Of a stretch of 64,000 nt of DNA, positions 22,325-64,000 are shown piece after piece. Location of the stretch: NCBI GenBank assembly GCA_963845145.1, contig CAWJQU010000005.1, positions 394,256 through 458,255 on the forward strand, written 5' to 3'. The translations under genes were made by a program, and so were the position numbers. The notes beneath the pieces were generated by a model. That model saw only the letters and a list, made by a program, of their open reading frames with translations, made no database searches and was not told the origin of the DNA. This DNA comes from an uncultured delta proteobacterium (GTDB lineage Bacteria > Desulfobacterota > Desulfobacteria > Desulfobacterales > QNYZ01). Position 1 is the first letter of the stretch, and each line of letters opens with the position of its first letter.

Positions 22325-22732
22325 ATGACCCGAAGCATCGAAATAAAAATAAAAATTCCATTTCATGATCTAGACCCCATGCATGTCGTCTGGCATGGTA
22401 ACTATATGAAATATTTCGATATTGCCCGGTTTGAATTGTTTAGCCGCGCGGGTGTTGATTTATATGGTTTTTCAGTTAAACATAAGATCATGTTTCCTGT
22501 TACACGGACCAACACCAAACACATCTTCCCCCTAAGGCACCAAGACGAAATAATTTGCAAGGCGACCATTTCGGAAGCCCAATACAAAATCGGCATCGAC
22601 TTTGATATACGAAGGGTTGAAGACGGGCAGATTTGTACCCGTGGCCGGGGCGAACAGGTGGCTGTTAAGGTACCGGAAATGGAACTATTGTTTGAAATAC
22701 CGAAGGAAATTCGAACCGCACTGGGATTTTAA
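22325..22732 (+). CDS. Hot-dog (4HBT/YbgC-type) acyl thioesterase
   Basis: 135 aa. FHDLDPMHVVWHGNYMKYFDIAR carries the catalytic Asp context of 4HBT thioesterases. First gene of a co-directional run. Confidence 0.7.
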   Translation: MTRSIEIKIKIPFHDLDPMHVVWHGNYMKYFDIARFELFSRAGVDLYGFSVKHKIMFPVTRTNTKHIFPLRHQDEIICKATISEAQYKIGIDFDIRRVEDGQICTRGRGEQVAVKVPEMELLFEIPKEIRTALGF

Positions 22733-22734
22733 AA

Positions 22735-24459
22735 ATGACAGCACAAATGAGTACTGCATTTTCGGCTGGATATGAGCGGCTTTCCGCCTGGGCCGAACTT
22801 CTGGATCAAATCAATGTCTATCCGGTGGCCGATGCGGATACGGGCCGCAATCTGATGATCAGCCTGGCACCGTTGCGCGATATGAAGGGTGACGACAAAA
22901 CGACCCCCCATCGACTACTCATGTCCGCCACCGGCAACTCCGGTAATATCGCCAACTGTTTTTTTTCCGAATTTATTGCCAATAATCCCGCCGAGAACAT
23001 CCCTCAAGCAGCCAAAGCGGGAAGAGACCGGGCCTGGCAGGCCATTCTCGACCCTCAACCCGGCACCATGCTGACCGTCCTGGATTCCCTGACGGAACAA
23101 CTTGAGAATACGCTTGTAAAAAACCTTACGGATATTTTTCCGACGCTGATCGAAACCTTACAAGCCAGTGTGCATGCCACGGCACAAGGTCTTCCCGTGC
23201 TTCAGGCGGCCGGTGTGGTGGATTCCGGTGCCTTGGGGATCTATATCTTTATGGAGGGATTTTTTGCCCAACTGACCAATCGGCAGGGCGGACTACGCCC
23301 CATCACCGAGACATTTGATGGAAAGTTATCCATATCCACCACTTTTCAGGCCAATGCCGAGGCCGGCTTTTGTGTGGATACGGTCATTAAAACCGATGCA
23401 GGACAAAATCCGGCCTTGGATGTGTTGTCCCAAGTCGGGGAAAGCATCGTCGTGACCCGTGATGATGCGGCACTTAAAATTCACTTGCACACCCGCAGTC
23501 GGGCGGAGGCACGAAAGGCCCTGGAGACATTGGGTGATGTCGTTCAATGGTCGGATGAAATGCTCGAATCCACGCATAGCGCGGAAAAGCATCTATCCAC
23601 CGAGCCGCTAGTCCGCATCGTGACCGATGCCGCCGGCTCGGTCACGCGCAAACAGGCCCAGGAGCTCGGCATCACCCTGTTGGATAGTTATATCGTTGAA
23701 GAGAACCAAAGCCTGCCGGAAACCCTCGTTTCGCCGGAGGCACTATATCGTTCCATGCAAAAGGGCATCCGCATCACGACGGCCCAGGCGTCTGTGTTTG
23801 AACGCCAGCAACGCTACCAAAGCATCATCAGTCGATTTCGATATGCCCTCTATCTATGCGTTGGCTCCGTTTACACGGGCAATTACGATGCGGCCATGGC
23901 CTGGCGGGAGAAAAACGACCCGGAAAGCCGTTTGGAAGTGATGGATACCGGCGCTGCGTCAGGCCGATTGGGAATTATTGCCCGGGCTGTGGCCGAATAT
24001 GCCAATCAGGGCCATACAGTAGCCCAGGTTATTAATTTTGCTAAATCGGCTGAAGAACAGAGTGAAGAATACCTCTTTTTGGATCGTTTGAAATATCTGG
24101 CCGCCGGTGGCCGCATATCCAAAAGCAAGGGTTTTATGGGCGACCTTTTGCATATGAAGCCGATCATCAGCCCCACCCGGGACGGCGCCGCCAAGGCGGG
24201 AACCGTTCGAAACCGGGAACAACAGGTCGATTTTGCCATGGATAAAATCAAGGCCCTCTCCCAGCGGGCGGACTGTTTTTCTATTTTGTTGGAATATTCC
24301 GATAACCGGCAGTGGGTTGAAGAGACGGTATTGAAAAAAATAGAGGAGCGCTATCCCGCAGCCCGGATAATGATAACGCCGTTGTCGCTGACTTCCGGGG
24401 TGCATATGGGGCCGGGTACCTGGGGCGTGGCCCTGTTGCCTTCGATTCAAACCGAATGA
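22735..24459 (+). CDS. Fusion protein: Dak2 (FakA/DhaL-type kinase) domain fused to a DegV (FakB-type fatty-acid-binding) domain
   Basis: N-terminal half: NVYPVADADTGRNL, GNSGNIA, FCVDTVI...GESIVVTRDD..LKIHLHT (Dak2/YloV layout). C-terminal half: RIVTDAAGSVT...GITLLDSYIV..., a DegV-type EDD fold. Confidence 0.7.
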   Translation: MTAQMSTAFSAGYERLSAWAELLDQINVYPVADADTGRNLMISLAPLRDMKGDDKTTPHRLLMSATGNSGNIANCFFSEFIANNPAENIPQAAKAGRDRAWQAILDPQPGTMLTVLDSLTEQLENTLVKNLTDIFPTLIETLQASVHATAQGLPVLQAAGVVDSGALGIYIFMEGFFAQLTNRQGGLRPITETFDGKLSISTTFQANAEAGFCVDTVIKTDAGQNPALDVLSQVGESIVVTRDDAALKIHLHTRSRAEARKALETLGDVVQWSDEMLESTHSAEKHLSTEPLVRIVTDAAGSVTRKQAQELGITLLDSYIVEENQSLPETLVSPEALYRSMQKGIRITTAQASVFERQQRYQSIISRFRYALYLCVGSVYTGNYDAAMAWREKNDPESRLEVMDTGAASGRLGIIARAVAEYANQGHTVAQVINFAKSAEEQSEEYLFLDRLKYLAAGGRISKSKGFMGDLLHMKPIISPTRDGAAKAGTVRNREQQVDFAMDKIKALSQRADCFSILLEYSDNRQWVEETVLKKIEERYPAARIMITPLSLTSGVHMGPGTWGVALLPSIQTE

Positions 24460-25199
24460 CACACATTCCGCCCAATGATGACACATCCGGCCGCTTTGCC
24501 GTTATCATTCCAGTCTACAATCACGAATTGACCGTCGCCACCGTGGTCCGAAAAGCACAGGCGCTCGGATTTCCGGTCTGGGTGGTGGATGACGGCTCAA
24601 CCGATTCAACGTACAATCAAGTGAAAACCATCGAAGGGGTGCGCATTTTGCACCATGACGTTAACCGGGGTAAAGGGGCCGCGCTCGCGACCGGTATGTT
24701 GGCCGCATCAAAAACGGCAGACTGGGCCATCACCCTTGATGCCGATGGGCAGCATCGACCCGGTGATGCAAAGAACCTGATTGATGCCATACAAAACGGC
24801 CAAAGACCGATAGTCATCGGCTGCCGGCAAGGAATGCAACAGGCCCGAGCCCCCTGGACGAGCCGGTTCGGACGTAAATTTTCAAACTTCTGGGTCATGG
24901 CCTCGGGCGGGCCCGACGTTGCCGATTCCCAAAGCGGATTTCGAATCTATCCACTACCCGAAAGTCTTGATCTGAAGGTTAAATCCGGACGGTTTCAGTT
25001 TGAGATCGAAATCCTGGTTAAAGCTTTTTGGCGAGGATGGGCGGTGGCGGAAGCACCGGTCAGCGTTTCTTACCATCCGGGGACGCCACGTATTTCCCAT
25101 TTTCACCCCTGGCTCGACTTTTTTCGAAATTCCGGCCTTTTCACCCGGCTTATATTCTATCGCATCTTTATGCTATGGCATCGCAACAACCCAAAATAA
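24456..25199 (+). CDS. Family-2 glycosyltransferase (DPM1/ApeJ-like)
   Basis: VIIPVYNHE...VVDDGSTDST...NRGKGAAL...LDADGQH. Start overlaps the previous stop. Confidence 0.8.
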   Translation: MTHIPPNDDTSGRFAVIIPVYNHELTVATVVRKAQALGFPVWVVDDGSTDSTYNQVKTIEGVRILHHDVNRGKGAALATGMLAASKTADWAITLDADGQHRPGDAKNLIDAIQNGQRPIVIGCRQGMQQARAPWTSRFGRKFSNFWVMASGGPDVADSQSGFRIYPLPESLDLKVKSGRFQFEIEILVKAFWRGWAVAEAPVSVSYHPGTPRISHFHPWLDFFRNSGLFTRLIFYRIFMLWHRNNPK

Positions 25200-25209: not shown

Positions 25210-26088
25210 ATGAAACGCGGTTTTTATTTCTTACTCATACGGATCACACGGTTGTGCGGTGCCTGGGTATTTCATTTGATCGCCGGGGGCGTCGCCGCCG
25301 GTTATTTTCTTTTTAGGCCACATCAGACCGCGATAAGCATTCGGTTTTATCGTGCCCTCTACCCTGAAAAAAAAAGCCGCTTCCACATTGGGTGCGCCTG
25401 GCGGCAATATCTAAATTTTACAACGGTTTATCTGGATCGGTTCGTTTTAGAAGCACGAGATGATGTCGAAACCACCCATGAAGGCTGGGAACACATCGAA
25501 GCCTGTCTGGCCCGCCGAACCGGTGCGATTATCCTCATGTCCCATTTGGGCAACTGGGAATTGGCGGCCCATTTGATGAAACGAAAGGAAAAACGCATTC
25601 GACTGCTTTTGTACATGGGGCGACGCGCAAAGGAACAAATCGAATCGATTCAAAAAACAGATTTGAGCACCCGGGGCGTCCGCATTATCGCCGTGGATGA
25701 AGACCAGGGCTCCCCTTTTGATATTCTCGAAGGGGTCCGCTTTTTGCAAACTGGTGGTATCGTCTCCATGACGGGGGATCGTTTGTGGCACCCGGACCAG
25801 CGGTTTGTTGAGGCGGCATTTTTAAATCATACCATTCGCCTACCGGAAACGCCCCATGTGATGGCCATGTTATCGGGCGCCCCGCTACTGATATTTTTCT
25901 CATTTCGTATAGGCAAAAACCGCTATCACTTAAGCTTGAGCGAACCGTTAAAGATCGAACATACGCCGCGTCGACAACGGGCGGCCGTTATTGAGCAAAG
26001 CGCTCAGCGTTATGCCGATCTTCTGGAACAAGCCTTGCGAAAAAATCCGCACCAATGGTATCACTTCGAGCCATTTCTTGAAAAATGA
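25210..26088 (+). CDS. LpxL/HtrB-type lysophospholipid/lipid A acyltransferase family protein
   Basis: MSHLGNWELAA (HX4E motif), N-terminal TM helix, about 292 aa from the ATG at 25210. The listed ORF start 25000 overlaps the GT2 gene and is rejected. Confidence 0.7.
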   Translation: MKRGFYFLLIRITRLCGAWVFHLIAGGVAAGYFLFRPHQTAISIRFYRALYPEKKSRFHIGCAWRQYLNFTTVYLDRFVLEARDDVETTHEGWEHIEACLARRTGAIILMSHLGNWELAAHLMKRKEKRIRLLLYMGRRAKEQIESIQKTDLSTRGVRIIAVDEDQGSPFDILEGVRFLQTGGIVSMTGDRLWHPDQRFVEAAFLNHTIRLPETPHVMAMLSGAPLLIFFSFRIGKNRYHLSLSEPLKIEHTPRRQRAAVIEQSAQRYADLLEQALRKNPHQWYHFEPFLEK

Positions 26089-26202: not shown

Positions 26203-26478
26203 ATGACCAAAGACGAAATTATAATCGCCCTTAACCGTATTTTTTTAGAACGATTTGAAATTGAAAATCCGGGTTTGGATGAAAATTTACGAGAAACTTA
26301 TGAGTTCGACAGTATTGATGCCATCGAACTGCTGCAAGAGATCGAGGTGCTACTGGACCGCACCCTGGAACGTGACGAGAAAAAAATGGCCATGGAAATC
26401 CGCACTCTTGGCCAAGTTGTTGATTACATTTATGATCTATTCGGATCGCAAAGCTCAAACGAATCCCAAGCCACCTGA
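26203..26478 (+). CDS. Acyl carrier protein
   Basis: 91 aa, acidic. YEFDSIDAIELL phosphopantetheine Ser motif. Confidence 0.85.
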   Translation: MTKDEIIIALNRIFLERFEIENPGLDENLRETYEFDSIDAIELLQEIEVLLDRTLERDEKKMAMEIRTLGQVVDYIYDLFGSQSSNESQAT

Positions 26479-26496: not shown

Positions 26497-27732
26497 ATGA
26501 CACGAAGAGTCGTCATTACCGCCGGCAGCGCCATTACACCCATCGGTCGAACCCGTCGGGAGATCATCGATCACCTGGTCAATGGTAAATCCGGGGTCAA
26601 ACCGCTGCGCGATGACGGCCTTTTGTCCCAGCGTGTTCACTCCGGTGTGTTCGGAACCGTAGACTATCCTATTGAATACGACTTTAAGCGCAGCCATCGC
26701 AAAACCATGGGGCCGGTCAGCTATTATGCCTGCCAGGTGGCCAAGGAAACCCTGGAACAATCGGGATTGGACGAAGCCTTCATCACTTCCGGTCGCCTGG
26801 GGGTTGCTTTCGGCTCCACCCATGGCAGCCCCACGGTTCAACGACATATCTTCAAAACCTTTTTCAATCCGGATAAGTCGATCTACAACAGCATCGGCGC
26901 GGTGGATTATTTAAAATCCATGGTCCACACCACCGCGGTTAATATTACCCGAATGTTCGGAATCACCGGCCGCATTATTTCGTCGTCCACCGCTTGTACC
27001 ACAAGCAGCCAGTCCATCGGGTTCGGCTACGAAACGGTTAAATTCGGCATCCAGGATGCCATGCTCTGCGGCGGTGCCGACGAGTACGATACAACCACGG
27101 TGGCGGTTTTCGATAACCTGTTGGCCTGCTCTTCGGATTTCAACGATACACCCCATCGAACGCCACGCCCCTTCGACAAACGCCGAGACGGCCTGGTGGT
27201 GGGCGAAGGCGCAGGTGCAGTGATGCTGGAAGCCTACGATTTTGCGCGAAAAAGAGGCGCGAATATTATCGGTGAGGTCATTGGATTTTCCTGCAACAAC
27301 AATGGCGGTGATCTGATTTTACCCAAGCTCGACGGCATCGCCGAGACCATCCGCCTGGCGCTTAAAGACGCCGACATCAGTCCGGACAACGTGGACTTTG
27401 TCAGCGCCCATGCTACAGCCACCAAAATGGGCGATGTTATTGAGGCCCAGGCCATCGACCGCGCCTATGGACGCGGACCGGCGGTGACCGGCTTGAAAAG
27501 CTACATGGGCCACACCATGGGCTCTTGCGGCGTCATCGAATCTATCATCACCCTATATTTGATGGCTGAAGGTTTCATCCCGGCCACCTTGAATCTGGAA
27601 GAGATCGATAAGCGCTGCGCCATGATTCGGCATATGACAGCCTTAGAAGAACATCCACTTAAGATAGGGGTCATTCAAAACTTTGCTTTCGGTGGCGTCA
27701 ATACCTGCCTGGTTCTGAAAAAATTTTCCTAA
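26497..27732 (+). CDS. Beta-ketoacyl-ACP synthase (KAS I/II type, Cys-His-His)
   Basis: SSSTACTTSSQS (Cys), VSAHATATKMGD (His), YMGHTMGSCG (His), C-terminal FAFGGVNTCLVL. Confidence 0.9.
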   Translation: MTRRVVITAGSAITPIGRTRREIIDHLVNGKSGVKPLRDDGLLSQRVHSGVFGTVDYPIEYDFKRSHRKTMGPVSYYACQVAKETLEQSGLDEAFITSGRLGVAFGSTHGSPTVQRHIFKTFFNPDKSIYNSIGAVDYLKSMVHTTAVNITRMFGITGRIISSSTACTTSSQSIGFGYETVKFGIQDAMLCGGADEYDTTTVAVFDNLLACSSDFNDTPHRTPRPFDKRRDGLVVGEGAGAVMLEAYDFARKRGANIIGEVIGFSCNNNGGDLILPKLDGIAETIRLALKDADISPDNVDFVSAHATATKMGDVIEAQAIDRAYGRGPAVTGLKSYMGHTMGSCGVIESIITLYLMAEGFIPATLNLEEIDKRCAMIRHMTALEEHPLKIGVIQNFAFGGVNTCLVLKKFS

Positions 27733-27754: not shown

Positions 27755-28558
27755 ATGAAACCCATGACGAAGAAACCGCCCACCCAACCTTTGCGGGTCG
27801 TCTGGGATGTGGTCGTGACCTTGGTCTTATGGACCTATTTTACGTTGGGGTTCATCATTTTTTTTGCCCCTTTTTATGCCATTGCCGCTTTTTTTAAAAA
27901 CCGGCGGGAATTGGCCTATCAGCGACTCAACCATCTATTTTTCAGAGGTTTCATCTTCCTGGTGCGCACCCTCCTTCCCGGCCACCGCTGGCGTATCGAC
28001 GAAACAGCCAAAAATATACGCTCCTCGGTCGTCGTGTGCAATCATCGCTCATACCTGGACCCGTTGATCCTCATTTCACTTTACGGCCGACAAAAGACCA
28101 TCGTTAAAAGCGATTTGTTCGCACTTCCATTGTTTGGTCGATTAATGCAGTGGTCCGGATTTATACCGTCGCGTTCCCGGGGCCCGATGGCCGAGTTGAT
28201 GCTTGAGCAGATGGAATCACTGGATGACTTTATGGTCGCCGGGGGCAACCTTTTTATTTTTCCCGAAGGCACCCGCAGTCGGGATGGTCGTATCGGCCGA
28301 CTCAACCCCAGCGCCTTTAAAATTGCCCGACGTTGCGGCGCGCCCATACGGGTGTTATTTATTAATAACACGGAAAAAACGTTTCCCCCTGAACGTTTTT
28401 GGTTTAACACCCAAGGCCCAAACACCATATCCGTACAATGGGTGGGCAGTATCGAAGCCAACGAATGGGCGCTAACCGATTCAACGGGAGCCGTCAGTGA
28501 ACGGGTACAAGAAATGTTGGAAAGGCACAACCGATTGGCTTCGGCCAATCCCGAGTAA
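27755..28558 (+). CDS. PlsC-family 1-acyl-glycerol-3-phosphate-type acyltransferase
   Basis: N-terminal TM helix. NHRSYLDP (HX4D), FPEGTRS block. Confidence 0.8.
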   Translation: MKPMTKKPPTQPLRVVWDVVVTLVLWTYFTLGFIIFFAPFYAIAAFFKNRRELAYQRLNHLFFRGFIFLVRTLLPGHRWRIDETAKNIRSSVVVCNHRSYLDPLILISLYGRQKTIVKSDLFALPLFGRLMQWSGFIPSRSRGPMAELMLEQMESLDDFMVAGGNLFIFPEGTRSRDGRIGRLNPSAFKIARRCGAPIRVLFINNTEKTFPPERFWFNTQGPNTISVQWVGSIEANEWALTDSTGAVSERVQEMLERHNRLASANPE

Positions 28559-28600: not shown

Positions 28601-30088
28601 ATGAAAATCGTATTGATGTCCATGCCCGACGTGGCGCCGGTAATCATGCACACCAGTGCCTTTCACATGGCCAACAACGGCCTTGCTAACATCGCCGCCA
28701 ACCTCGATGGTGAACATGATGTCTATATTATTGACCTGATCCGCAAAAGACGCCGGGTTGTCAACTATGTGACCCAAACGCTGCTTAAATATCGTCCGGA
28801 TATGGTCGGTTTGTCATCCATGACTTGGCAATACGCCACCTGCACGAAACTGCTCAAGCTGATAAAACGCCTGCTGCCGGATGTCAAAACGGTGATCGGC
28901 GGTTATCATGCCACACTGATGTACAAAGAGATCGCAGACTCCAAAGAGGCGGACTGGATCGATTTTATAATTCGCGGCGAAGGAGAAGTGGCCTTTAGCG
29001 CCCTGATCAATGCGGTAGGTGGGCATGGCCGATACAAGGGAATTCCCTCACTCTCCTTTAAAGATGACGCCGGGTTTTGCCACAACCCCAAAGGGGAACC
29101 ACTGGATCTGGCCCAGATCAAGCTTCCCGTCCGGGATAAACGGCGCACGACCAGCGGATACCATGTCATGAACCGCAAGGTCGAGGTGATGGAGACCTCA
29201 CGAGGTTGCACCCGCTCCTGTCATTTTTGCAGCATGCATCACATGTACGGGCGGATCTATCGAACCTTTCCTATCGACCGGATTCTGGCCGATATCGATA
29301 CCATCTACCACCAACGCCATACCCGCCGTATATTTATAACCGATGACAACATGGTTCTGGCGCCAAATCGAGTGATCGAGTTGTGTGAGGCCATTATCGC
29401 CCGGAAATATCGCCGCCTCCAATTCAGCGTCCAAGCGGATTGCATCACCATCTCCAAAAATGAGACCATGGTGCGCAAAATGGCCCAAGCCGGATTTAAG
29501 CTGATATTTTTAGGAATTGAGAACGTCTCTTCCAAAAACTTGAAAACCGCCGGTAAAGGCAATATTGTCAATGCGTCGCGGCAGGCCGTGGCAATATGCC
29601 ACAAATATGGCATCATGGTCCTGGGGGGGATGATATTCGGATTTCCCGATGATGAAGAGGCGGACATTATTGCCAACTATCGATTCCTTAAGGAGATCGA
29701 AGCAGATTCCGCCTACTGCCAGATACTCACACCCTACCCAAAAACCGATTTGCGCCGCACATTGATGGCGGAGGGCCTTGTGACCAACCCAGATAATTTT
29801 ACAAAGTATAACGGCATGTGGGCCAACATTAAAACCCGTCATTTAGATGCCCAACGGCTCCAATACCTCTTTTGGCTGCATCGGCGGAAAGTGTTGGGAT
29901 GGTGGGAACCGTCCAAGCAGGTCCGGGAGCAGGGGAGACTTGCGACATCCATCTGGGTTTATGCATTACGACCGCTACTCAAATTTATCGAGGCCCGAAC
30001 CCAAAAGCGATCAAGCTTGGATGGTCGCTATCAGCAGGACATGCTAAGGTTGGCTGAGATCAACCAATTTAAGGATTTGGAGGCCTAA
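28601..30088 (+). CDS. B12-binding-domain radical SAM enzyme (class B type) no. 1
   Basis: N-terminal Rossmann-like B12-binding module (MKIVLMSMPD...DVYIIDL...PDMVGLSS), then SRGCTRSCHFCS (CX3CX2C). Confidence 0.85.
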   Translation: MKIVLMSMPDVAPVIMHTSAFHMANNGLANIAANLDGEHDVYIIDLIRKRRRVVNYVTQTLLKYRPDMVGLSSMTWQYATCTKLLKLIKRLLPDVKTVIGGYHATLMYKEIADSKEADWIDFIIRGEGEVAFSALINAVGGHGRYKGIPSLSFKDDAGFCHNPKGEPLDLAQIKLPVRDKRRTTSGYHVMNRKVEVMETSRGCTRSCHFCSMHHMYGRIYRTFPIDRILADIDTIYHQRHTRRIFITDDNMVLAPNRVIELCEAIIARKYRRLQFSVQADCITISKNETMVRKMAQAGFKLIFLGIENVSSKNLKTAGKGNIVNASRQAVAICHKYGIMVLGGMIFGFPDDEEADIIANYRFLKEIEADSAYCQILTPYPKTDLRRTLMAEGLVTNPDNFTKYNGMWANIKTRHLDAQRLQYLFWLHRRKVLGWWEPSKQVREQGRLATSIWVYALRPLLKFIEARTQKRSSLDGRYQQDMLRLAEINQFKDLEA

Positions 30089-35630: not shown

Positions 35631-35648
35631 TCTTAAAACCTTCTGTAG

Positions 35649-35856: not shown

Positions 35857-35859
35857 AAA

Positions 35860-55893: not shown

Positions 55894-57365
55894 GTGCCGT
55901 ACGGGCCATCATATCCGGGACAGGGATCATCAGCGCCCTGGGATCCGGATGGGTTGCCACCCGTAACGCATTGGAAGCACAACGGGTGGCGATTGGGCCG
56001 CTGAGCCTTTTCCCCACCCCGCATGACCCGCCCCTTCCGGCCGGGGAAGTACGCAACCGGTTGGAACAAAACGCGCTGCCGCGCACCCACCAGCTGGCCC
56101 AAATCGCCGCCGCTCAGGCGTTTACAGGGAGACTCGCTCCAGATGCCATCGTCGTAGGGACCACTACCGGTGGATTGCTGACCACCGAAGCGCTGTTGAA
56201 ACAAAATGTGGCCGACCCTTCGGCGTATTGTTTTCATTCGCCGGCCACGGTGGCGGAAACCATCGCCAAACAATATGGATGCCGAGGGCCGGTCCTGACC
56301 GTATCCACTGCGTGTTCGTCCGGAGCCGTCGCCTTAAAAATCGCCCTTGAACTCATTCGAAACGGCCGCGCCCGCCGGGTTCTGGCCGGAGGTGCCGACA
56401 ATTTGTGCCGCCTGATCTATCACGGTTTTAACGCCCTCCAACTCATCGATCCCAAAGGTGCCCGTCCCCTGGACCGGGACCGCCGGGGCATGTCCGTGGC
56501 CGAAGGTGCCGCTTTTTTGATGCTCGAAGCAGACGATGGGCATCCGAACGCCGTAGCACTCCTTGGCGCAGGGCTTTCATGTGATGCCTTTCATCCAACA
56601 GCTCCCCATCCCGACGGCAAAGGCGCTATGGCGGCCATGACAGCCGCTATAGAGGATGCCGGACTCAACCCTGAAACCATCGACTACATCAATCTTCACG
56701 GCACCGGCACCTTGGATAACGATCTATCCGAAGCCCGGGCTGTTCGCACCCTTTTTAAAAACAAGACACCGATGCTTTCATCGGTTAAGGGGGCCATGGG
56801 CCACTCATTGGGTGCGGCAGGGGCCATGGAAGCGGTCATTGCGACAAACTGTGTGCATGATCAATGGATTCCCGGAAATGTGGGCCTGAGCACACCTGAC
56901 CCAGCCTTAAACCTGACACCGATCATGCGATCCAAAGCCACACCTGTTCGAACCGTCCTCTCCAATTCCCTCGGGTTCGGGGGCAATAATGCCGCGGTCG
57001 TCATCGGGGACTCCCGCATTGGCGACCGTTCACCTGCAATGAACACCGGATCGCGATCCGGGCCGTTGACCATTCTGGGTAGCGCATGCATCACCGGAGC
57101 CGGCCATACCGATGAAACCTTAAAGCGTTTCACAAAAGGCCGGACCTGCAACGGCAAACTTGCTTTAGATCTTATGACCCGTTTTTTATCACCCAAACGC
57201 GTCAGGCGACTTAAACGCCTTCCCCGGTTGACATTGGCCCTGGCCGAGCAAGCCCATAGCCATGCGGACCAATCCCCCCCCCGTAGAATCGATTTTTATG
57301 GGCACCGGCTGGGGCGCCCTGTCCGAAACCTATCGTTTTTTGACCCGACTTTTCGAAACCGATGA
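55890..57365 (+). CDS. Beta-ketoacyl-ACP synthase (Cys-His-His) reading without a stop into the N-terminus of a KS-N-like partner; the frame is lost at the C9 tract
   Basis: VSTACSSGAVAL, NLHGTGTLDND, MGHSLGAAG, FGGNNAAVVIG end the KS. LTILGSACITGAG...PKRVRRLKRLPRLTLALAEQAH is the partner N-terminus. Residues after the C9 tract (57274..57282) are out-of-frame nonsense. Confidence 0.8.
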   Translation: MSAVRAIISGTGIISALGSGWVATRNALEAQRVAIGPLSLFPTPHDPPLPAGEVRNRLEQNALPRTHQLAQIAAAQAFTGRLAPDAIVVGTTTGGLLTTEALLKQNVADPSAYCFHSPATVAETIAKQYGCRGPVLTVSTACSSGAVALKIALELIRNGRARRVLAGGADNLCRLIYHGFNALQLIDPKGARPLDRDRRGMSVAEGAAFLMLEADDGHPNAVALLGAGLSCDAFHPTAPHPDGKGAMAAMTAAIEDAGLNPETIDYINLHGTGTLDNDLSEARAVRTLFKNKTPMLSSVKGAMGHSLGAAGAMEAVIATNCVHDQWIPGNVGLSTPDPALNLTPIMRSKATPVRTVLSNSLGFGGNNAAVVIGDSRIGDRSPAMNTGSRSGPLTILGSACITGAGHTDETLKRFTKGRTCNGKLALDLMTRFLSPKRVRRLKRLPRLTLALAEQAHSHADQSPPRRIDFYGHRLGRPVRNLSFFDPTFRNR

Positions 57366-58086
57366 ACAATTCCCCAGCCCGACCGATTTTATCGGCTCGG
57401 TACACAATGCACCCGCCGGCCAGGCGGCCATGATGTTTAACGCCACCGGTGCCAACGTTACCACCACGGGAGGTGACGTATCGTTTGAACAGGCGCTCAT
57501 GGCAGCGGAACTTGTGTGTGGCGGCGATACGGCCCTGGTAATAGGTGCGGATGAAGCCCATGACAAATTTTCGCCACTGCTGGATCCATCGGTTGGCGAA
57601 AACGGCCATTTATCGGATGGCGGCGGGGCACTGCTGGTTAAGCCGGGATCAAAGCCCGGTGGTGTTTCCATCCATCTGGCCCATTATGAACCTGCCGATG
57701 ACCCGGCTGATGACATTGCTCATGGCCTGGCCGTGACAATCGACGGGGTTATCGATTCACTGGGCTCGGCAGATCGGTTGCATTCGCGTATCGGTTTTAT
57801 TTTAGCCGGGATTCCCGCAGCGCAAAGAACGCAAGGCGACCGGCAATTGGATCAATTCAGGGAACGCACCCGCTTTACAGGCCCCGTAATCGACTATCGC
57901 CCGATTATCGGCGAATTTGCCTCTGCTTCAGCTGTTGCCGCTGTTCTGTCCGCCCGGTTCACAGCTGAAGGGGTGATACCCGGCGGCCTTAGTTCCGATG
58001 ACCAAACGCTTCCATTAAACGGCAAGGGCGGCTTGGTCCTGGGGCTGGGACGATGGGTCACGGCCATGGAGGTGGTGCTGCAATGA
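57262..58086 (+). CDS. Remainder of the KS-N-like partner domain (frame shifted by one relative to its own N-terminus)
   Basis: PPVESIFMGTGWGALSETYRFL...SPTDFIGSVHNAPAGQAAMMF aligns by eye with 48463..49572 (GIIVATGYGATCNTFDF...SPTVFANSVHNAAASHLSI). Confidence 0.75.
   Translation: MRTNPPPVESIFMGTGWGALSETYRFLTRLFETDEQFPSPTDFIGSVHNAPAGQAAMMFNATGANVTTTGGDVSFEQALMAAELVCGGDTALVIGADEAHDKFSPLLDPSVGENGHLSDGGGALLVKPGSKPGGVSIHLAHYEPADDPADDIAHGLAVTIDGVIDSLGSADRLHSRIGFILAGIPAAQRTQGDRQLDQFRERTRFTGPVIDYRPIIGEFASASAVAAVLSARFTAEGVIPGGLSSDDQTLPLNGKGGLVLGLGRWVTAMEVVLQ
57274..57282 (+). repeat. Homopolymeric C9 tract at the frame break
   Basis: aat ccccccccc gta counted directly. Confidence 0.95.
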
Positions 58087-59507
58087 AGGTATTGTTGATC
58101 TCTGCCAATCAATACACCCAACCGCATCCGGTTTACCCTCTGGGCCTTGATTATGTGGCCGGCGCCATTGGCCCGGACCATGTGGTTGAAATCCTGGATT
58201 TAAACGCCCTCAACCCGTCAGAGGCGCTTTTTGAAGCGATCGACGATTTTTCGCCGGATATCATCGGGCTGTCCATTCGAAATATCGACAACACGGACGT
58301 CTCTTCGCCCCAGGGATTCATTGCCGCCTATCGCCATCTTGCCGATACCATTCGAACCCAATCCCGTAAAATTATACCTGATAAAAATAGGCCCGATCAA
58401 AACAGACCCGGTCAAAATAAAACTGGTCAAAATGGGGATAAGGTCCCACTGGTTCTGGGAGGGAGCGGCTTCACCCTGTTTCCCCGGGAACTGATGGCAA
58501 GCCTTGGCGCCGACTATGGCATTATCGGCGAAGGTGAACGGTTTGGCCTTCTATTGGATTGTTTAACCAAAGGCAAGGACCCGTCGATGCTGCCCGGCAT
58601 CATTACCGCCAAAAACGGGGGAACAGTGCCCATTCCCTGGCAGGGGCGCATCGCCGATCGTTTTAATCCCAACCGTCCTCACCTTTCCTATTACCTGAAA
58701 AACGGGGGAATATTAAACCTTCAAACCAAACGCGGATGTCGATACCGATGTATTTATTGTACCTACCCGTATATCGAAGGCGGCAGCCCCAGGTTGTTTG
58801 ACCCCGATGATATCGCCGGTACCGCGCGACAACTGCAGACGGCCGGAGCAAAGTATCTGTTTATCACGGATTCAACCTTCAACTCGGAGATGGACCATAC
58901 CCTGGCCGTGGCAGAGGCGTTTAAACAAGCGGCCGTCACCATTCCCTGGGGGGCCTTTTTTGCACCCATGGTTCCTGCTGGCGATTATTTCAAACAGCTG
59001 GCCGATGCCGGGCTCACCCATGTTGAATTTGGAACGGAATCATTAAGTGACCCGGTATTGAAAACCTATCGAAAACCGTTTAAACAACGCCATGTTTTAG
59101 AGGCCCACCAAGCGGCTCTGGACGCCGGATTGCATGTGGCCCACTATTTTTTATTGGGCGGTCCGGGTGAAACCCCGGATACGGTGGCAGAAACCCTGGA
59201 TCGCGCGGATCGGCTGGAAAAATGTGCCCTATTTGTCTTTTGCGGGATGCGCATTTACCCCCATACGGAGTTACACCGGATAGCCACCGCTGAAGGCCGG
59301 ATTTGTCCCAGTGACAATTTGATGGCGCCGGTATTTTATCAGAATCCGGCGATCTCGGAGCACGCATTGATGCAACGGGTAAATAAATGGGCCGATGGGC
59401 ATGGCAACCGAATCGTTGGGGCCGGTGGTGAAGAGACGGCCCGGATTATTTCAAGGCTCTACAGCCGCGGATTTTCCGGTCCACTCTGGGAATATTTGAT
59501 CCGGTGA
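58083..59507 (+). CDS. B12-binding-domain radical SAM enzyme no. 3
   Basis: MKVLLISANQ...VEILDL...PDIIGLSIRN B12-binding-like module, TKRGCRYRCIYCT (CX3CX2C). ATG at 58083 overlaps the previous stop (ATGA). Confidence 0.85.
   Translation: MKVLLISANQYTQPHPVYPLGLDYVAGAIGPDHVVEILDLNALNPSEALFEAIDDFSPDIIGLSIRNIDNTDVSSPQGFIAAYRHLADTIRTQSRKIIPDKNRPDQNRPGQNKTGQNGDKVPLVLGGSGFTLFPRELMASLGADYGIIGEGERFGLLLDCLTKGKDPSMLPGIITAKNGGTVPIPWQGRIADRFNPNRPHLSYYLKNGGILNLQTKRGCRYRCIYCTYPYIEGGSPRLFDPDDIAGTARQLQTAGAKYLFITDSTFNSEMDHTLAVAEAFKQAAVTIPWGAFFAPMVPAGDYFKQLADAGLTHVEFGTESLSDPVLKTYRKPFKQRHVLEAHQAALDAGLHVAHYFLLGGPGETPDTVAETLDRADRLEKCALFVFCGMRIYPHTELHRIATAEGRICPSDNLMAPVFYQNPAISEHALMQRVNKWADGHGNRIVGAGGEETARIISRLYSRGFSGPLWEYLIR
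58377..58436 (+). repeat. Four imperfect in-frame tandem copies of a 15-bp unit inside the radical SAM gene
   Basis: cctgataaaaatagg / cccgatcaaaacaga / cccggtcaaaataaa / actggtcaaaatggg encode PDKNR PDQNR PGQNK TGQNG. Confidence 0.9.
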
Positions 59508-59588: not shown

Positions 59589-59984
59589 ATGTGGCACCGA
59601 ATAGACCAAATAACACGCACACCGTCGGGTGAAATATCGGCCGAATGCCACATCTCGGTGGAATCACAATGGTTTTTGGGACATTTTCCCGGAAAACCAA
59701 TATTGCCTGCAATCGCCCAGTTGGCGATGGTGCGTGAAACAATCAGCCGTGGAAGCCATCAGGCTGGCGATGTTAACCATGACAATAACCGTGATGGCCA
59801 CCATGATAGCCGGCCGGCTGATTGCCGGTTCAGTCGCGTAAAATTTAAAAAGATGATCACACCCGGCGAGTGCTTGATAATTCTGGCCTCTCCGAAGAAA
59901 ACCCCCGGCACTTATACATTCCGTATAACGGTCGAAAAGTCCATTGTATGCAGTGGTAACTTGACAATTAAAACAGACTCTTGA
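59589..59984 (+). CDS. Hot-dog-fold dehydratase (FabA/FabZ-like) with a His/Asp/Asn-rich insertion
   Basis: WFLGHFPGKPILPAIAQLAMV is the catalytic His motif region. Insert GDVNHDNNRDGHHDSRPAD. Confidence 0.65.
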   Translation: MWHRIDQITRTPSGEISAECHISVESQWFLGHFPGKPILPAIAQLAMVRETISRGSHQAGDVNHDNNRDGHHDSRPADCRFSRVKFKKMITPGECLIILASPKKTPGTYTFRITVEKSIVCSGNLTIKTDS

Positions 59985-60039: not shown

Positions 60040-60321
60040 ATGGCAATTGAAACCGGCATTGAAAAGATCACGTTACGTGTAGCGGAAATGATGATCAGCG
60101 AACTCAAGCTCGAAGATATTACCCCTGAGACATTTGATCCGAAAATTGATTTGGTCGACGAGGTGGGTATTGACAGCATGGATCTGGCCACCTTGGCGCT
60201 GGTCATTCGAGATGAATACGCGATTCGTATCGATGAGGACGACTACCCCAAATTAACCAATCTTCGATTAATCGCCGAGTATGTCTCTAAAAAACTCGAT
60301 GAGAAAAAATCGGACGCATAG
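60040..60321 (+). CDS. Acyl carrier protein
   Basis: VGIDSMDLATLA motif. 93 aa. Confidence 0.85.
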   Translation: MAIETGIEKITLRVAEMMISELKLEDITPETFDPKIDLVDEVGIDSMDLATLALVIRDEYAIRIDEDDYPKLTNLRLIAEYVSKKLDEKKSDA

Positions 60322-60342: not shown

Positions 60343-61440
60343 TTGGCCGTGGTGAGTGAACCCAATCGTAAAACCGAAAGTACCGACAACTCGGAAGAAG
60401 CAAAATTTTCCGACATATTAGCCGACCCACAGGTGCGTGCCCGCTGGGAAAAAGTTCGGAAATGGTTTTTCTTGAGGGAGTCGACCTATGACATGACCAA
60501 CCGCTGCAATATCCGCTGCGAAGGGTGTTATTTCTATGAGGGCGACAAACAATTCGCCCAGCTCAATACGGATCCTCAAGCCTGGCGCCGGTTGATGAAA
60601 GCGGAAAAAGAGCGTGGTATCACTTTTGTGGTCCTGGCCGGCGCAGAACCGTCGCTGGTTCCCCAGTTATGCGAAGCCTGCTATGACGAGATACCGCTGG
60701 GAGCCATTGCCACCAACGGCATAAATCGGTTCCCGGCATCCATTGAATATAAAATTCACATTTCCGTATGGGGCAATGACGACACCAGTTTGAAAATTCG
60801 AGGTGCCAAGAATATGTTGCGGCGACAGATCGACAACTATCGCCATGATCCCCGAGCCGCCTTTGTCTATACCTTCACGCGCGACAATATCGAGCAGGCC
60901 TTTGAGGTCGGGGACGTATTGGCCGACAACGATTGCCAAATGACTTTCAATATGTTTTCCGCCCCGGTAGGGTACAGTGGCGATTTGCGGCACACGGCAG
61001 CGTCGCTTAAACAAACCCGACAGGCAATGATGGCGCTTTTGAAAACATATCCCCATAATGTGCTTTTCTCCCCTTACAGTACGGTTGCGCACACCCACCA
61101 CCTGGGTCTGCACGACCTGTATGCGTGTCCGTATCCACGCCGCAATCCGTCCACGGCCATCGGCCTCGGTCGGTCTTTCCGCCAGTATCGGACCGATCTG
61201 ACCTGGGATCGTCAAGCCGCCTGCTGTGTTCCTGACACGGATTGTGACGACTGCCGCCACTACGCCGCCGGTAGTGCCGTGGTCACAGCGCGCATGTTTC
61301 GCCATGCCGTCAAACGGGAAACATTTTGCGCCTGGCTCGATTATGCCGACACCTATCTGGCCGTCTGGGTAAAGGGGTATGAAAAAAGTACCAACTTGTT
61401 AAGCACCTTGAGCCCGCCACCGGGCAACAGCATCTTTTAA
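60343..61440 (+). CDS. Radical SAM enzyme with a C-terminal Cys cluster (paralogue A)
   Basis: TNRCNIRCEGCY (CX3CX2C). C-terminal AACCVPDTDCDDCRHY. Non-ATG start, so the exact start is uncertain. Confidence 0.8.
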   Translation: MAVVSEPNRKTESTDNSEEAKFSDILADPQVRARWEKVRKWFFLRESTYDMTNRCNIRCEGCYFYEGDKQFAQLNTDPQAWRRLMKAEKERGITFVVLAGAEPSLVPQLCEACYDEIPLGAIATNGINRFPASIEYKIHISVWGNDDTSLKIRGAKNMLRRQIDNYRHDPRAAFVYTFTRDNIEQAFEVGDVLADNDCQMTFNMFSAPVGYSGDLRHTAASLKQTRQAMMALLKTYPHNVLFSPYSTVAHTHHLGLHDLYACPYPRRNPSTAIGLGRSFRQYRTDLTWDRQAACCVPDTDCDDCRHYAAGSAVVTARMFRHAVKRETFCAWLDYADTYLAVWVKGYEKSTNLLSTLSPPPGNSIF

Positions 61441-61469: not shown

Positions 61470-62468
61470 ATGAAAACCGTCAGCCAGCTACTGGATGACC
61501 ACTGGTATAAACGCTACCAGCGGATCTCCAAACTCAATATTCGAAGCTCCATTTACGATGTAACCAACCGATGTAACCTGCGTTGCAAGGGATGTTTTTT
61601 TTTCTCATCCGACGAGCATAAAGCCGCACCGGAAGAGATGGATCTTAGCAAATGGGAAACCTTTATCGATCGGGAAAAAGCGCGCGGGGTCAATCTGGCC
61701 ATTCTGATTGGTGGCGAGCCGACCTTGTGCCTGGATCGGGTCGAAGCATTTTATCGGCGTCTGCCAACCTTTTGCGCCACCAATGGGTTGATTAAAATCC
61801 CGCGCGAACAGTTTCCACACATGATGTTAGGCATATCCCTCTGGGGCGACAAGGCCGACGAGAATGTGCTGCGGGGTAAAGATACCTTCAGCATTTCCAG
61901 TAAAAACTATGCCGGCGACCCGCATGTGTATTATCTTTATACCATCACCCCGCGACAGATCGGACACACCGAAAAGATCATACAAAAAGTCGCCGATGTG
62001 GGCCTAAAGGTCCATATGCAGCTGCTGTCCAATGATGAAGGCGTGGATGGTTTTTCATGGACAGCAGAACAATTGAATGCCATCCGGGTGGAAATGGACC
62101 AGATGCTGGATACCTATCCGGAAACCGTTATTTCGTGTAAATACTATCATGAAATCATCACCACCGGCCAAATGCTGGGCCGCCGTTTCGGATGGAACGA
62201 GTGCCCGTCGGTCACCTTGCCTTTGGATACCCGCGAGCCCCAGCCGAAACGGCTGATCGAGTTTATCCGATGGGCATCGGACTTAAACACTATGCACCGT
62301 TGCTGTACGTCCGAAACCCGGGATTGTTCCACTTGTAAAGATGGTGCTGCCCACATGAGCTGGGTTATGGTTAATAAACGCGCCCACATCAAAACGACCC
62401 AAGATCTGCAAAACTGGATCGAAGTGTACGAAATGTTTGCCAAGCTCTATCAGTTCATTCCCTGGTAA
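61470..62468 (+). CDS. Radical SAM enzyme with a C-terminal Cys cluster (paralogue B)
   Basis: TNRCNLRCKGCF. C-terminal HRCCTSETRDCSTCKDG. Collinear with 60343..61440. Confidence 0.8.
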   Translation: MKTVSQLLDDHWYKRYQRISKLNIRSSIYDVTNRCNLRCKGCFFFSSDEHKAAPEEMDLSKWETFIDREKARGVNLAILIGGEPTLCLDRVEAFYRRLPTFCATNGLIKIPREQFPHMMLGISLWGDKADENVLRGKDTFSISSKNYAGDPHVYYLYTITPRQIGHTEKIIQKVADVGLKVHMQLLSNDEGVDGFSWTAEQLNAIRVEMDQMLDTYPETVISCKYYHEIITTGQMLGRRFGWNECPSVTLPLDTREPQPKRLIEFIRWASDLNTMHRCCTSETRDCSTCKDGAAHMSWVMVNKRAHIKTTQDLQNWIEVYEMFAKLYQFIPW

Positions 62469-62474: not shown

Positions 62475-63725
62475 ATGCCTTCAAAAAAAGCCGTCGTTGT
62501 CGGATACGATTCGGTCTCACCACTGGGAACGGACACCAACGCCCAGTGGGCACGGGCCGCGAAGGGCGAAAGTGGTCTTGGAGCGCTCACCCGTTTTGAG
62601 CTGACGCCTGAGTTTCCTGTTCGAATCGCCGGTGAAGTGGCCCCTATCGATACCGGGCCCTATCCCTTTCTTTCCCCCCGAAAACTAGCCCTCTGGCCGT
62701 CACCATTGTTCAAATATGCCCTCTTGGTCGTTCACCGGGCTTTGTTAAAAAGCGGTATTGAGATCACACCGAGTCTGGCCCCCCGCGTGGCGGTTACTTT
62801 CAGCTCGGCCGTGGGCGGTCTGGACGCGATTCTCAATGCCGATCGGCGCTTGATTGCTCACGATAAGCTACCCCTTCCATACGCGAACCCCAATGGTTGC
62901 ATCAATATGGTGGGTGGGAAAGTGTCCATTCTAACCGGCGCCACCGGTCCGATTCTATCCACGGTTACGGCGTGTGCCACCGGCGCCACCTCAGTGGTGA
63001 TCGGTGCCATGCTGCTTGAATCGGGACAAGCCGATGTGGCCATCTGCGGGGCAGCGGATTTTGCCATAGTCGAACCCATTGTGGCCGGATTTGCCACCAT
63101 GAACGCCGCCGTTCAGATGAAACCGGGTGAAGCGGAAATTCCGGCTGAAAAAGCCAGCCGCCCCTTTTCCATAGACCGACGCGGGTTCGTTATTTCCGAA
63201 GGGGCCGGTGCGATTATTCTGACGACGCGCGAATTTGCCCTTGCGCAAGGCCTCGATTACGCCATCGAGATCGCCGGGTGGGAGATGACATCCGACGCCC
63301 ATCACTTCGTAGCGCCGCATCTGCCAACAGTCACAAGTTGCATTGCCGGTAGTATTGACAGGGCCGGCGTGTCCATGCATGATATCGCCTCCGTAAACGC
63401 CCATGCCACCGCAACCAAGGTTGGCGACCAGGTGGAATACCAGGCCCTGCGGGCCGTGTTCGGGGATCGCCTGCCGCCGGTGACGGCCAATAAATCCCTG
63501 ATCGGACATGCCATGGGAGCGTCCAGCGCCATTGAGTCGATTATGGCCATGCAAGGCATGCTAAACGATACGATACTTCCGACGGTTAACTACACCCCGG
63601 ACCCGGCGCTCACTTTTGATCATATCCCGACCACCGCGCGTCGGTTGAACCAGGAATTCGTATTGAAAAACGCTTTTGGTTTCGGCGGCTGCAATACGTG
63701 TATTATTTTTCGAAGGATGAGATGA
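62475..63725 (+). CDS. Beta-ketoacyl-ACP synthase (Cys-His-His)
   Basis: TVTACATGATSVV, VNAHATATKVGD, IGHAMGASS. Confidence 0.9.
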   Translation: MPSKKAVVVGYDSVSPLGTDTNAQWARAAKGESGLGALTRFELTPEFPVRIAGEVAPIDTGPYPFLSPRKLALWPSPLFKYALLVVHRALLKSGIEITPSLAPRVAVTFSSAVGGLDAILNADRRLIAHDKLPLPYANPNGCINMVGGKVSILTGATGPILSTVTACATGATSVVIGAMLLESGQADVAICGAADFAIVEPIVAGFATMNAAVQMKPGEAEIPAEKASRPFSIDRRGFVISEGAGAIILTTREFALAQGLDYAIEIAGWEMTSDAHHFVAPHLPTVTSCIAGSIDRAGVSMHDIASVNAHATATKVGDQVEYQALRAVFGDRLPPVTANKSLIGHAMGASSAIESIMAMQGMLNDTILPTVNYTPDPALTFDHIPTTARRLNQEFVLKNAFGFGGCNTCIIFRRMR

Positions 63726-63733
63726 ATTAGTCG

Positions 63734-64000
63734 ATGAAAGCACCGCTGAACAGACGCGTCTTCGTTGTCGGTTACGGAGCGGCGACGCCATTGGGCAAAA
63801 CGTTTGATCTGACCTGGAAACGGGCCGTGAGGGGCGATGCCGGCTTCAGGCGACTGACCCGCTGCCAAACCGAATCACGGGCCAATGTGGTGGGTGAAAT
63901 CCCCGACTGGGACCCCATGGCCCTAGATTTCATGGATCGCAAAGAGGCCTACAATTGGAATGCGGATTATGTTTTCCTTACCATGGCTGTTTGCAAAGAG
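63734..64000 (+). CDS. Beta-ketoacyl-ACP synthase, N-terminal part only (runs off the window)
   Basis: My own translation from the ATG at 63734 gives MKAPLNRRVFVVGYGAATPLGKTFDLTWKRAVRGDAGFRRL...VVGEIPDWDP, the canonical KS N-terminus. No stop before 64000. Confidence 0.7.
   Translation, partial: MKAPLNRRVFVVGYGAATPLGKTFDLTWKRAVRGDAGFRRLTRCQTESRANVVGEIPDWDPMALDFMDRKEAYNWNADYVFLTMAVCKE

Follow-up and report, generated by a model that had tools for sequence, protein, structure and literature searches.

Clusters that combine fatty acid synthase (FAS) type II genes with radical S-adenosylmethionine (SAM) enzymes were described in 2009 by Rattray et al. as syntenic in Kuenenia and in deltaproteobacteria (D. 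psychrophila, Geobacter and Pelobacter; PMC2649909). Regions called "ladderane" by antiSMASH occur in Desulfobacterota and other phyla, where they are functionally unexplained (10.1101/2022.12.20.521206), and ladderane biosynthesis is still treated as unsolved (PMC10139942, PMC13459092). Three further systems invite comparison: the aryl polyene (APE) clusters, the dialkylresorcinol (dar) clusters and jawsamycin. The last is the only precedent with experimental support in which a radical SAM enzyme tailors a ketoacyl lipid, and a 2026 review names just this case and ladderanes, the latter unproven (PMC13459092). Such tailoring of fatty-acid-type lipids is almost unexplored. Here we analyzed a 64,000-nucleotide stretch of contig CAWJQU010000005.1 from an uncultured delta proteobacterium (the window), whose genes from 22.3 kb to its end form a split, dar-fused variant of the cluster family described since 2009 without a product. 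With a probability of roughly 0.6, we read it as one copy of a type II FAS/polyketide synthase (PKS)-like lipid cluster that is conserved in Desulfobacterota and Syntrophales, marked by a TIGR04072 enzyme, split by two insertions, and responsible for a product tailored by radical SAM enzymes.

The inventory is based on the open reading frames (ORFs) of the window and on Pfam and NCBIfam profile scans of these ORFs, with active-site triads and CxxxCxxC motifs read from alignments and translations (Table 1). An alignment of the TIGR04072 family was scanned against one genome per GTDB species, the best 80 loci of 510 genomes, all at least 50% identical, were detailed, and 41 window proteins were compared by tblastn with 83 related loci, which are cited by number (L001 and so on) where needed. 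The marker enzyme starts at the Met codon at 58083, and its homologues carry the NCBI name "lipid biosynthesis B12-binding/radical SAM protein." Its assignment to TIGR04072 agrees with the score, with the B12-binding and CxxxCxxC core, and with a context of ketosynthase (KS), acyl carrier protein (ACP) and dehydratase (DH) genes: here and in the relatives, an ACP and a KS lie upstream, and a DH and an ACP lie downstream. The match comes in two stretches and barely exceeds the cutoff (360 bits, whole-protein score) because of a low-complexity insert of 15 to 25 residues, PDKNRPDQNRPGQNKTGQNGD, at about residues 100 to 125 in the B12-binding domain, which the homologues lack.

The genes around the marker follow a recurrent order in the relatives. 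A first part comprises an LpxL-type acyltransferase, an ACP, a KS, a PlsC-type acyltransferase and, variably, B12-binding radical SAM A and a KS with its partner; a second part on the opposite strand comprises a B12-binding radical SAM gene, a lipoprotein, a LolA-like protein, a ketoreductase (KR) and a DH; the third part runs from an ACP through the KS-partner fusion, the TIGR04072 enzyme, a DH, an ACP, two radical SAM genes and two KS genes to a thioesterase and a PS-DH dehydratase. Since this order is found again in dozens of species genomes, the arrangement is not due to chance, and we take it as the probable ancestral one. Where at least 5.5 kb of downstream sequence was available (56 loci), the DH was present in 51, and the ACP, both radical SAM paralogues and the KS in 48; with at least 8 kb upstream (48 loci), the ACP was found in 44, the KR in 37 and the second B12-binding radical SAM gene in 36. 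The proposal of an initial annotation of the window, that the radical SAM genes are embedded among and conserved with the KS and ACP genes, was thus borne out, synteny being seen in about 86% of the loci with enough flank. That annotation had named a lack of such synteny in related genomes as a ground for abandoning its claim, and the synteny observed leaves the claim standing.

The same annotation had joined two distant gene runs into a single split lipid locus, and this view is supported by the relatives: the genes of the first half abut the homologue of the gene at 42467 to 43735 in 21 of the 29 species genomes that are informative, with a gap usually below 460 bp, and L001 is contiguous. 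The corresponding gap in the window measures 10.5 kb. Past the end of the window, a second KS follows in 46 related loci, a 4HBT thioesterase in 45, a PS-DH dehydratase in 44 and a small conserved ORF in 30, and there are also GT25-like (18 loci), PlsY (16) and MMPL/methyltransferase (11) genes; neither a starter-unit lyase nor an adenylating enzyme was found in their annotated downstream flanks. Relatives of the TIGR04072 enzyme are encoded in at least 510 species genomes, the majority from Desulfobacterales and Syntrophales. The best 80 carriers belong almost entirely to Desulfobacterales (Desulfosarcinaceae, Desulfococcaceae, Desulfatitalea), the remainder being Syntrophales (Smithella), Syntrophobacteraceae, and single Spirochaetota and Leptospirales metagenome-assembled genomes, and cultured carriers include Desulfosarcina widdelii PP31 and Desulfatitalea alkaliphila. 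The initial annotation knew of a broadly similar combination only in the anammox candidates; the combination is not new, however, as it was already reported in deltaproteobacteria (PMC2649909) and as relatives are so widespread.

Most of the gap is filled by genes at 32.7 to 42.2 kb that were found in none of the 83 related loci, except that FMN_bind homologues lie elsewhere in 3 of them. Their GC content is 0.44 to 0.48, versus 0.50 to 0.58 for the cluster. Because of this absence and the lower GC content, we take these 9.5 kb as unrelated inserted DNA, and pathway membership of the genes was rejected on account of their absence from the relatives. A repeat search around this insertion and the second one (44.0 to 52.7 kb) revealed no target-site duplications, and neither flanking repeats nor a tRNA were found for the first insertion. 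Directly upstream of the AAA_14/DUF4143 ATPase gene in the first insertion lies a perfect 48-bp palindrome (35650 to 35697; two 24-nucleotide arms, no spacer).

All five radical SAM candidates that had been listed, three B12-binding enzymes and two paralogues with a Cys cluster, were recovered with their motifs and domains. The CxxxCxxC motif is present in each, an N-terminal B12-binding domain in the proteins starting at 28601, 42467 (minus strand) and 58083, and a C-terminal Cys cluster in the paralogues starting at 60343 and 61470, which are 27% identical to each other. The gene at 42467 to 43735 is among the most conserved of the cluster (76 to 84% identity in relatives); clustering at 50% identity places its orthologues in one or two groups, and the next relatives reach at most 38%. 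Of the top 120 homologues of paralogue 2 (the protein itself removed), 117 of 119 are 332 amino acids long, with identities of 81 to 91%. Judged from identities of 76 to 85% across relatives, the radical SAM genes are under strong purifying selection.

The B12-type enzymes score best against class B methylases and their relatives, rearranging enzymes among them, with profile likenesses to BchE, HpnR, BzaD and C-methyltransferases of ribosomally synthesized and posttranslationally modified peptides (RiPPs) and with PDB sequence likenesses to TsrM and AprD4. One could thus propose that cobalamin-dependent C-methylation is the main activity of the radical SAM enzymes and that the product is a methyl-branched, possibly saturated acyl chain of ordinary phospholipids, reached through the thioesterase, a Fak-like kinase, PlsY and PlsC, rather than an outer-membrane polyene pigment. 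The Dak2-DegV fusion, which resembles fatty acid kinase, and the PlsC-type acyltransferase of the window are in line with this proposal, as is PlsY within the cluster of 16 relatives. However, all the class B family likenesses except TIGR04072 fall far below their cutoffs (for radical SAM A, every NCBIfam score is below its cutoff), the two paralogues without a B12 domain are unlike methylases, no enoyl reductase (ER) belongs to the cluster, and the LolA-like protein, the lipoprotein, the glycosyltransferase family 2 (GT2) enzyme and the LpxL-type acyltransferase point to export of an envelope lipid. We consider this alternative quite unlikely.

The ketosynthase complement corresponded to what had been described: five KSs with a whole Cys-His-His triad in the alignment, the start of a sixth, three Cys-less partners that carry Asp at the position of the active-site Cys, and four ACPs recognized by their PP-binding domains. 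Five 4-bp start/stop overlaps, a feature also pointed out initially, are visible in the ORF table. A search of an ACP against PDB sequences gave ordinary ACP matches only. For the fused KS and its partner, the best PDB sequence matches were chains B and C of 9s5h, and the ApeO:ApeC pair of aryl polyene synthesis (6qsp chains A and B) came next; the fused pair thus resembles, at the sequence level, heterodimers of a KS and a chain length factor (CLF). Each of the 48 relatives with both parts has KS and partner in a single uninterrupted ORF. In the window, a run of nine C residues (57274 to 57282) holds a +1 frameshift that splits the gene, and tblastn with the 723-amino-acid protein of L001 changes frame at about 57288. 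This frameshift is either a homopolymer error of sequencing or assembly or a real, slipped-strand or inactivating disruption.

We then compared the accessory genes with those of APE clusters (E. coli CFT073 apeA-R, with gene roles taken from PMC8253772; Xenorhabdus ApeO:ApeC). Both have a KS with a CLF-like partner, an extra KS, two ACPs, two hot-dog DHs, a FabG-like KR, a thioesterase, a GT2, a lysophospholipid-type acyltransferase, and a LolA-like protein with a lipoprotein, and both are devoid of an ER. The accessory set of aryl polyene/flexirubin type announced by the initial annotation is accordingly present: the 4HBT thioesterase, the GT2 and the LpxL- and PlsC-type acyltransferases gave Pfam matches, two hot-dog DHs and one FabG-type KR were found, the KR exceeding the NF004200 cutoff, and the ABC-2 exporter exists as a pair of permease and ATPase. 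Among the proteins described as LolA-like and DUF3261, the former was confirmed and the latter was not, the lipoprotein at 52821 to 53477 failing to match DUF3261 in Pfam even at an E value of up to 10. Unlike APE clusters, the window has five radical SAM genes and has no ApeH acyl-ACP synthetase (no AMP-binding match in the scanned ORFs), no COG4648 protein, no DUF3261 match and no RND/MMPL gene inside the cluster. The second DH scores 17.4 bits against the ApeI-like Pfam model, below the cutoff of 28.5. As had been stated, no ORF between 22 and 64 kb matches an ER family, and following the logic of aryl polyenes, unsaturated intermediates are therefore expected. The start of the LpxL-type acyltransferase is placed, from its translation, at about 25210.

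The nearest analogues remain the candidate ladderane loci of anammox bacteria and deltaproteobacteria (Kuenenia kuste3603-3608, "Cluster I," and kuste3335-3352), as initially suggested and in keeping with membership in TIGR04072 (rSAM_ladder_B12). Like the window, these loci hold type II FAS-like genes, several KS paralogues including dead partners, dedicated ACPs, a FabZ-like DH, FabG, the TIGR04072 enzyme, more radical SAM paralogues, a glycosyltransferase and membrane exporters, and for the loci outside anammox bacteria, as for the window, the product is unknown. A literature search yielded no paper on TIGR04072 and, for Desulfobacterota, no characterized lipid cluster with KS and radical SAM genes, only genome-mining mentions; PMC12758564 contained no pertinent information. 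The window differs from these loci (the anammox ones being compared by description) in its three B12-type radical SAM enzymes, its fused KS-partner gene, its pair of LolA-like protein and lipoprotein, its LpxL- and PlsC-type acyltransferases and its nested dar module, and in lacking genes like those for phytoene dehydrogenase (no PF01593 match in the ORFs of 22 to 64 kb) or phenylacetyl-coenzyme A (CoA) ligase. True ladderane lipids with fused cyclobutanes, as proposed for the anammox clusters, could be the product if the marker family and the mirrored component types of Cluster I, namely ACP, KS/partner, B12-binding radical SAM and FabZ-like DH (10.64898/2026.05.19.726425; PMC10139942), were decisive; the two 9s5h chains matched by KS and partner, possibly those of the anammox FabF heterodimer of 10.64898/2026.05.19.726425, would fit as well. 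Against this stand the missing gene of the phytoene dehydrogenase type, the report of ladderanes solely from anammox Planctomycetota, the failure to find them in D. psychrophila despite its related clusters (PMC2649909), the at least 510 non-anammox species genomes with marker relatives, and the DH, which gave ordinary FabZ matches among PDB sequences and no special match to a solved anammox FabZ. Ladderane production by this locus is thus highly improbable.

The second insertion (8.7 kb, 44.0 to 52.7 kb) is a full dar module with DarA, DarB, DarG, DarH, an ACP, a KS, a CLF-like partner and an ABC-2 pair. Its identity is indicated by a KS of the DarB family, by DarA located next to DarB, and by the company of DarG, DarH, ACP, KS and ABC transporter; the darA gene itself matched no Pfam or NCBIfam profile, and DarB remains below the cutoff of the narrower resorcinol_DarB model (461 versus 550 bits). 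The gene at 45054 to 46217 had been taken for a FabH-type KS: the gene is real, but the FabH initiator identity was dropped in favor of a StlD/DarB ketosynthase, and the protein described as BtrH-like proved to be DarH. Similarly, the statement that no aryl-starter genes are visible holds for ammonia lyase, chorismate lyase and an ApeH-type enzyme; however, as the module includes the ring-forming DarA and DarB, "no aryl-forming genes" is wrong in substance. In gene content the module matches the Azoarcus BH72 dar locus, which is responsible for the resorcinol moiety of arcuflavin, a pigment (PMC3949708), and it resembles the flexirubin-type dar clusters of Chitinophaga. Those loci adjoin an aryl polyene/xanthomonadin cluster with XanB2/TAL and an AMP-ligase, whereas this one is nested in a radical SAM lipid cluster of an anaerobic, Desulfobacterota-like organism. 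It further differs from flexirubin clusters in that the FlxB and LolA2_flexi scores stay below their cutoffs and in that tyrosine ammonia lyase and CoA ligase were not found. The dar genes are codirectional with the lipoprotein, LolA, KR and DH genes at a distance of 160 bp, which would allow coexpression without proving it. In L051, a homologue of the window thioesterase (4 to 785; 66% identical) adjoins DarG, hinting that the window thioesterase may travel with the dar genes. The stand-alone dar cluster of L085 (8462 to 20065) has, beside DarA, an amine oxidase (phytoene-dehydrogenase-like) gene and an AMP-binding enzyme, types that are part of the ladderane-like loci of Rattray et al. (PMC2649909) and are not in the window.

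Several observations weigh against reading the window as one cluster with a radical-SAM-tailored product. The first-half genes lie apart from the rest in 8 of the 29 informative genomes, including that of D. widdelii, and the dar module is free-standing in other Desulfobacterota (L085, L087), for which reason its functional coupling to the cluster is unproven. Dar and radical SAM cluster occur together only here and in L051, the former being absent from 81 of the 83 related loci. One may therefore see in the window a mosaic of independent pathways without a common product, made up of a lipid-remodeling operon (22 to 32 kb), a dar cluster (44 to 52.7 kb) and a radical SAM/KS operon (52.8 to 64 kb), a view with which the variable presence of radical SAM A and of the KS pair at 30.1 to 32.0 kb also agrees. 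The close junction of both halves in the majority of genomes argues otherwise, as do the thioesterase, glycosyltransferase, acyltransferases, KS, CLF, KR, two DHs and LolA, which jointly give a full aryl-polyene-like set, the position of the dar genes within the minus-strand run close to the lipoprotein gene, and the renewed adjacency of dar and cluster in L051; on balance we find a mosaic unlikely. The one-cluster reading must also accommodate that no member of the cluster family has a known product, that in Desulfotalea psychrophila, which has a related cluster, nothing but acyclic C31 polyunsaturated hydrocarbons was seen, with ladderanes missing (PMC2649909), that neither DUF3261 nor an ApeH-type starter enzyme turned up in the window scans, and that housekeeping FabI or FabK could still perform reduction despite the lack of a cluster ER. 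In addition, the locus may be partly inactive because of the frameshift in the KS-partner fusion. Finally, the AlphaFold2 model of the 332-amino-acid radical SAM paralogue is poor (mean local confidence score, pLDDT, of 59, with a weak C-terminal third), and Foldseek matched it only to generic SPASM/twitch-type cores (SuiB, anSME, MoaA, viperin, GDGT-MAS) with TM scores of 0.4 to 0.5, so that no mechanism can be assigned to this enzyme.

As homology shows, the KS/CLF-type enzymes, ACPs, FabG-type KR and two hot-dog DHs extend an ACP-bound chain, and a dedicated ER is lacking. On the one-cluster reading, this chain might then be modified by the radical SAM enzymes, three of them cobalamin-type and two SPASM/twitch-like, with C-methylation or the formation or rearrangement of C-C bonds taking place at unactivated or olefinic carbons. 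In jawsamycin biosynthesis, a radical SAM enzyme (Jaw5) likewise acts on the enoyl intermediate of a growing ketide chain (PMC13459092); Jaw5, however, is HemN-like and works with a type I iterative PKS, unlike the enzymes of the window with their type II system, and no sequence relationship between Jaw5 and these enzymes was found. Going by family roles, the thioesterase, the Fak-like protein, the LpxL- and PlsC-type acyltransferases and the GT2 (together with PlsY in relatives) would install the acyl chain on a glycerolipid or glycolipid, and the LolA-like protein, the lipoprotein and the exporters would carry the lipid to the outer membrane. The destination in the outer membrane and the type of radical chemistry are both inferred. 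In this genome only, DarA and DarB with their KS/ACP set may make a dialkylresorcinol, which DarH could esterify to the acid of the cluster, giving a flexirubin-like hybrid. More speculatively, and in our estimate doubtful, the conserved module of five radical SAM enzymes in sulfate reducers and syntrophs may produce a new class of envelope lipid whose polyenyl chain is cyclized, C-C coupled or polymethylated through cobalamin-dependent radical chemistry and is here joined to a dialkylresorcinol, an anaerobe counterpart of flexirubin.

The cluster family is very common in bacteria of anoxic sediments, has strongly constrained radical SAM genes and no known product, and shares its marker enzyme family with anammox loci, which are not genetically tractable. 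If the product were identified in a cultured sulfate reducer, five orphan radical SAM families would gain a function, and the finding could also provide new lipid biomarkers for sediments and inform the ladderane question. If the envelope lipid reading is true, the cultured carriers would for the first time make the TIGR04072-type step that is assumed for ladderane biosynthesis accessible to experiment. The window contributes evidence that both halves belong to a single cluster, and it provides a natural case of such a cluster fused with a dialkylresorcinol module.

Table 1. Features of the window from 22.3 kb to its end (positions in the window; cutoffs are those of the respective profile)
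Feature	Position	Strand	Evidence and remarks
4HBT-fold thioesterase, ApeK-like role	22325-22732	+	Pfam 4HBT_2 2.4e-10; YbgC/FadM-like score under cutoff
Dak2 + DegV fusion, FakA/FakB-like fatty acid kinase or binding protein	22735-24459	+	Pfam DegV 1.4e-42, Dak2, FakA-like_M; TIGR00762 158 bits (cutoff 99.7)
GT2 glycosyltransferase	24456-25199	+	Pfam Glycos_transf_2 1.6e-24; GT2 and LpxL neighbors in L023 too
LpxL-type (lipid A/lysophospholipid family) acyltransferase	25210-26088	+	Pfam Lip_A_acyltrans 7.6e-15; conserved in relatives
ACP 1	26203-26478	+	PP-binding; 54-66% identical in relatives
KS, Cys-His-His, PRK09116-like	26497-27732	+	69-79% identical in relatives
PlsC-type acyltransferase	27755-28558	+	Pfam Acyltransferase 4.4e-20
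B12-binding radical SAM A, BchE/HpnR-like, class B	28601-30088	+	Pfam B12-binding and Radical_SAM; CTRSCHFC at 203; variable, 18 related loci
KS, Cys-His-His	30141-31286	+	Presence variable; in 12 related loci
Cys-less KS-N partner, CLF-like	31296-31988	+	Pfam ketoacyl-synt, N-terminal only; Asp/Thr at Cys position
Insertion outside the cluster: rhodanese, AAA_14/DUF4143 ATPase, two YkuD L,D-transpeptidases, FMN_bind protein, two methyltransferases	32707-42219	-	Pfam
B12-binding-domain radical SAM	42467-43735	-	Weak Pfam B12-binding, Radical_SAM; CRYNCYPC at 173
DarA, dialkylresorcinol aromatase/condensing-enzyme family	44037-44960	+	307 amino acids; 58-63% identical homologues named DarA by NCBI
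DarB, StlD/DarB ketosynthase, cyclohexanedione/resorcinol ring formation	45054-46217	+	NF005293 535.5 bits (cutoff 450)
ABC-2 permease and ATPase, darI/darF equivalents	46275-48452	-	Pfam; same genes in Azoarcus dar cluster (PMC3949708) and L085
dar-module CLF-like partner, Cys-less	48463-49572	-	4-bp overlap with KS; homologues in L051, L085
dar-module KS, Cys-His-His	49569-50771	-	Homologues in L051, L085
ACP 2, DarC-like	50768-51034	-	PP-binding
DarH, BtrH-related acyltransferase	51216-52217	-	NF053550 478 bits (cutoff 300)
DarG-family protein	52226-52660	-	NF053536 147 bits (cutoff 70)
Lipoprotein, possible LolB/ApeN analogue	52821-53477	-	218 amino acids; lipobox LTAC; adjoins LolA-like gene in relatives too
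LolA-like carrier	53474-54121	-	Pfam LolA 3.6e-10; LolA2_flexi 88 bits (cutoff 125)
FabG-type KR, closest to flexirubin FlxB	54181-54915	-	NF004200 290 bits (cutoff 273); FlxB 303 bits (cutoff 340)
Hot-dog DH, ApeP/FabZ-like	54955-55428	-	Pfam ApeP-like 22.8 bits (cutoff 27); FabZ weak
ACP 3	55627-55893	+	PP-binding 2e-11
Fusion gene of KS (55890 to ~57287, Cys-His-His) and Cys-less partner (~57289 to 58086)	55890-58086	+	Frameshifted here
Lipid biosynthesis B12-binding/radical SAM, TIGR04072 (rSAM_ladder_B12)	58083-59507	+	362.3 bits; CRYRCIYC at 219; PF02310 and PF04055
Hot-dog DH, FabA/FabZ/ApeI-like	59589-59984	+	Pfam FabA 2.3e-9; after TIGR04072 gene in 51/56 loci
ACP 4	60040-60321	+	PP-binding
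Radical SAM paralogue 1, C-terminal Cys cluster	60343-61440	+	CNIRCEGC at 55; CCVPDTDCDDC at 294; 63-73% identical in relatives
Radical SAM paralogue 2, C-terminal Cys cluster	61470-62468	+	CNLRCKGC at 35; extremely conserved
FabF-like KS, Cys-His-His	62475-63725	+	Profile scans and alignment
Start of a further (sixth) KS, leaving the window end	63734-64000	+	76% identical to KS421 of L001, the conserved second KS of relatives

Some observations concern genes next to the cluster. The first gene run is closed by a 180-amino-acid multipass membrane protein (32147 to 32689) that matches no family and has no counterpart in the related loci. Upstream of the thioesterase and codirectional with it lies a resistance-nodulation-division (RND) efflux set, consisting of OEP (15813 to 17465, minus strand), an HlyD-type membrane fusion protein (17783 to 18994) and AcrB (18991 to 22080), which could be the ApeM-like exporter absent from the cluster or an unrelated drug pump. 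The sole ene-reductase-like gene nearby, 6.7 kb upstream, encodes an NADH:flavin oxidoreductase of the Old Yellow Enzyme type (14339 to 15646, minus strand; 435 amino acids).

Scans of the whole window with Rfam and for tRNAs gave zero matches, and the empty Rfam scan implies that there is no cobalamin or SAM riboswitch in the window; the promoter and terminator scan stayed at chance level. In the D. widdelii locus (L075), a PNP_UDP_1 phosphorylase (3800 to 5248) and rubrerythrin flank the conserved B12-binding radical SAM gene, and the phosphorylase may be a methylthioadenosine (MTA)/5'-deoxyadenosine nucleosidase, an activity useful to radical SAM enzymes. The same locus carries a PS-DH dehydratase fused to a phosphopantetheinyl transferase, followed by PlsY (17598 to 19867). 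The first part of the window contains a circularly permuted YpsA protein of the SLOG family with DUF6794 (4608 to 5453) and a DDE transposase (5775 to 7139), which suggests a mobile or defense-type neighborhood.

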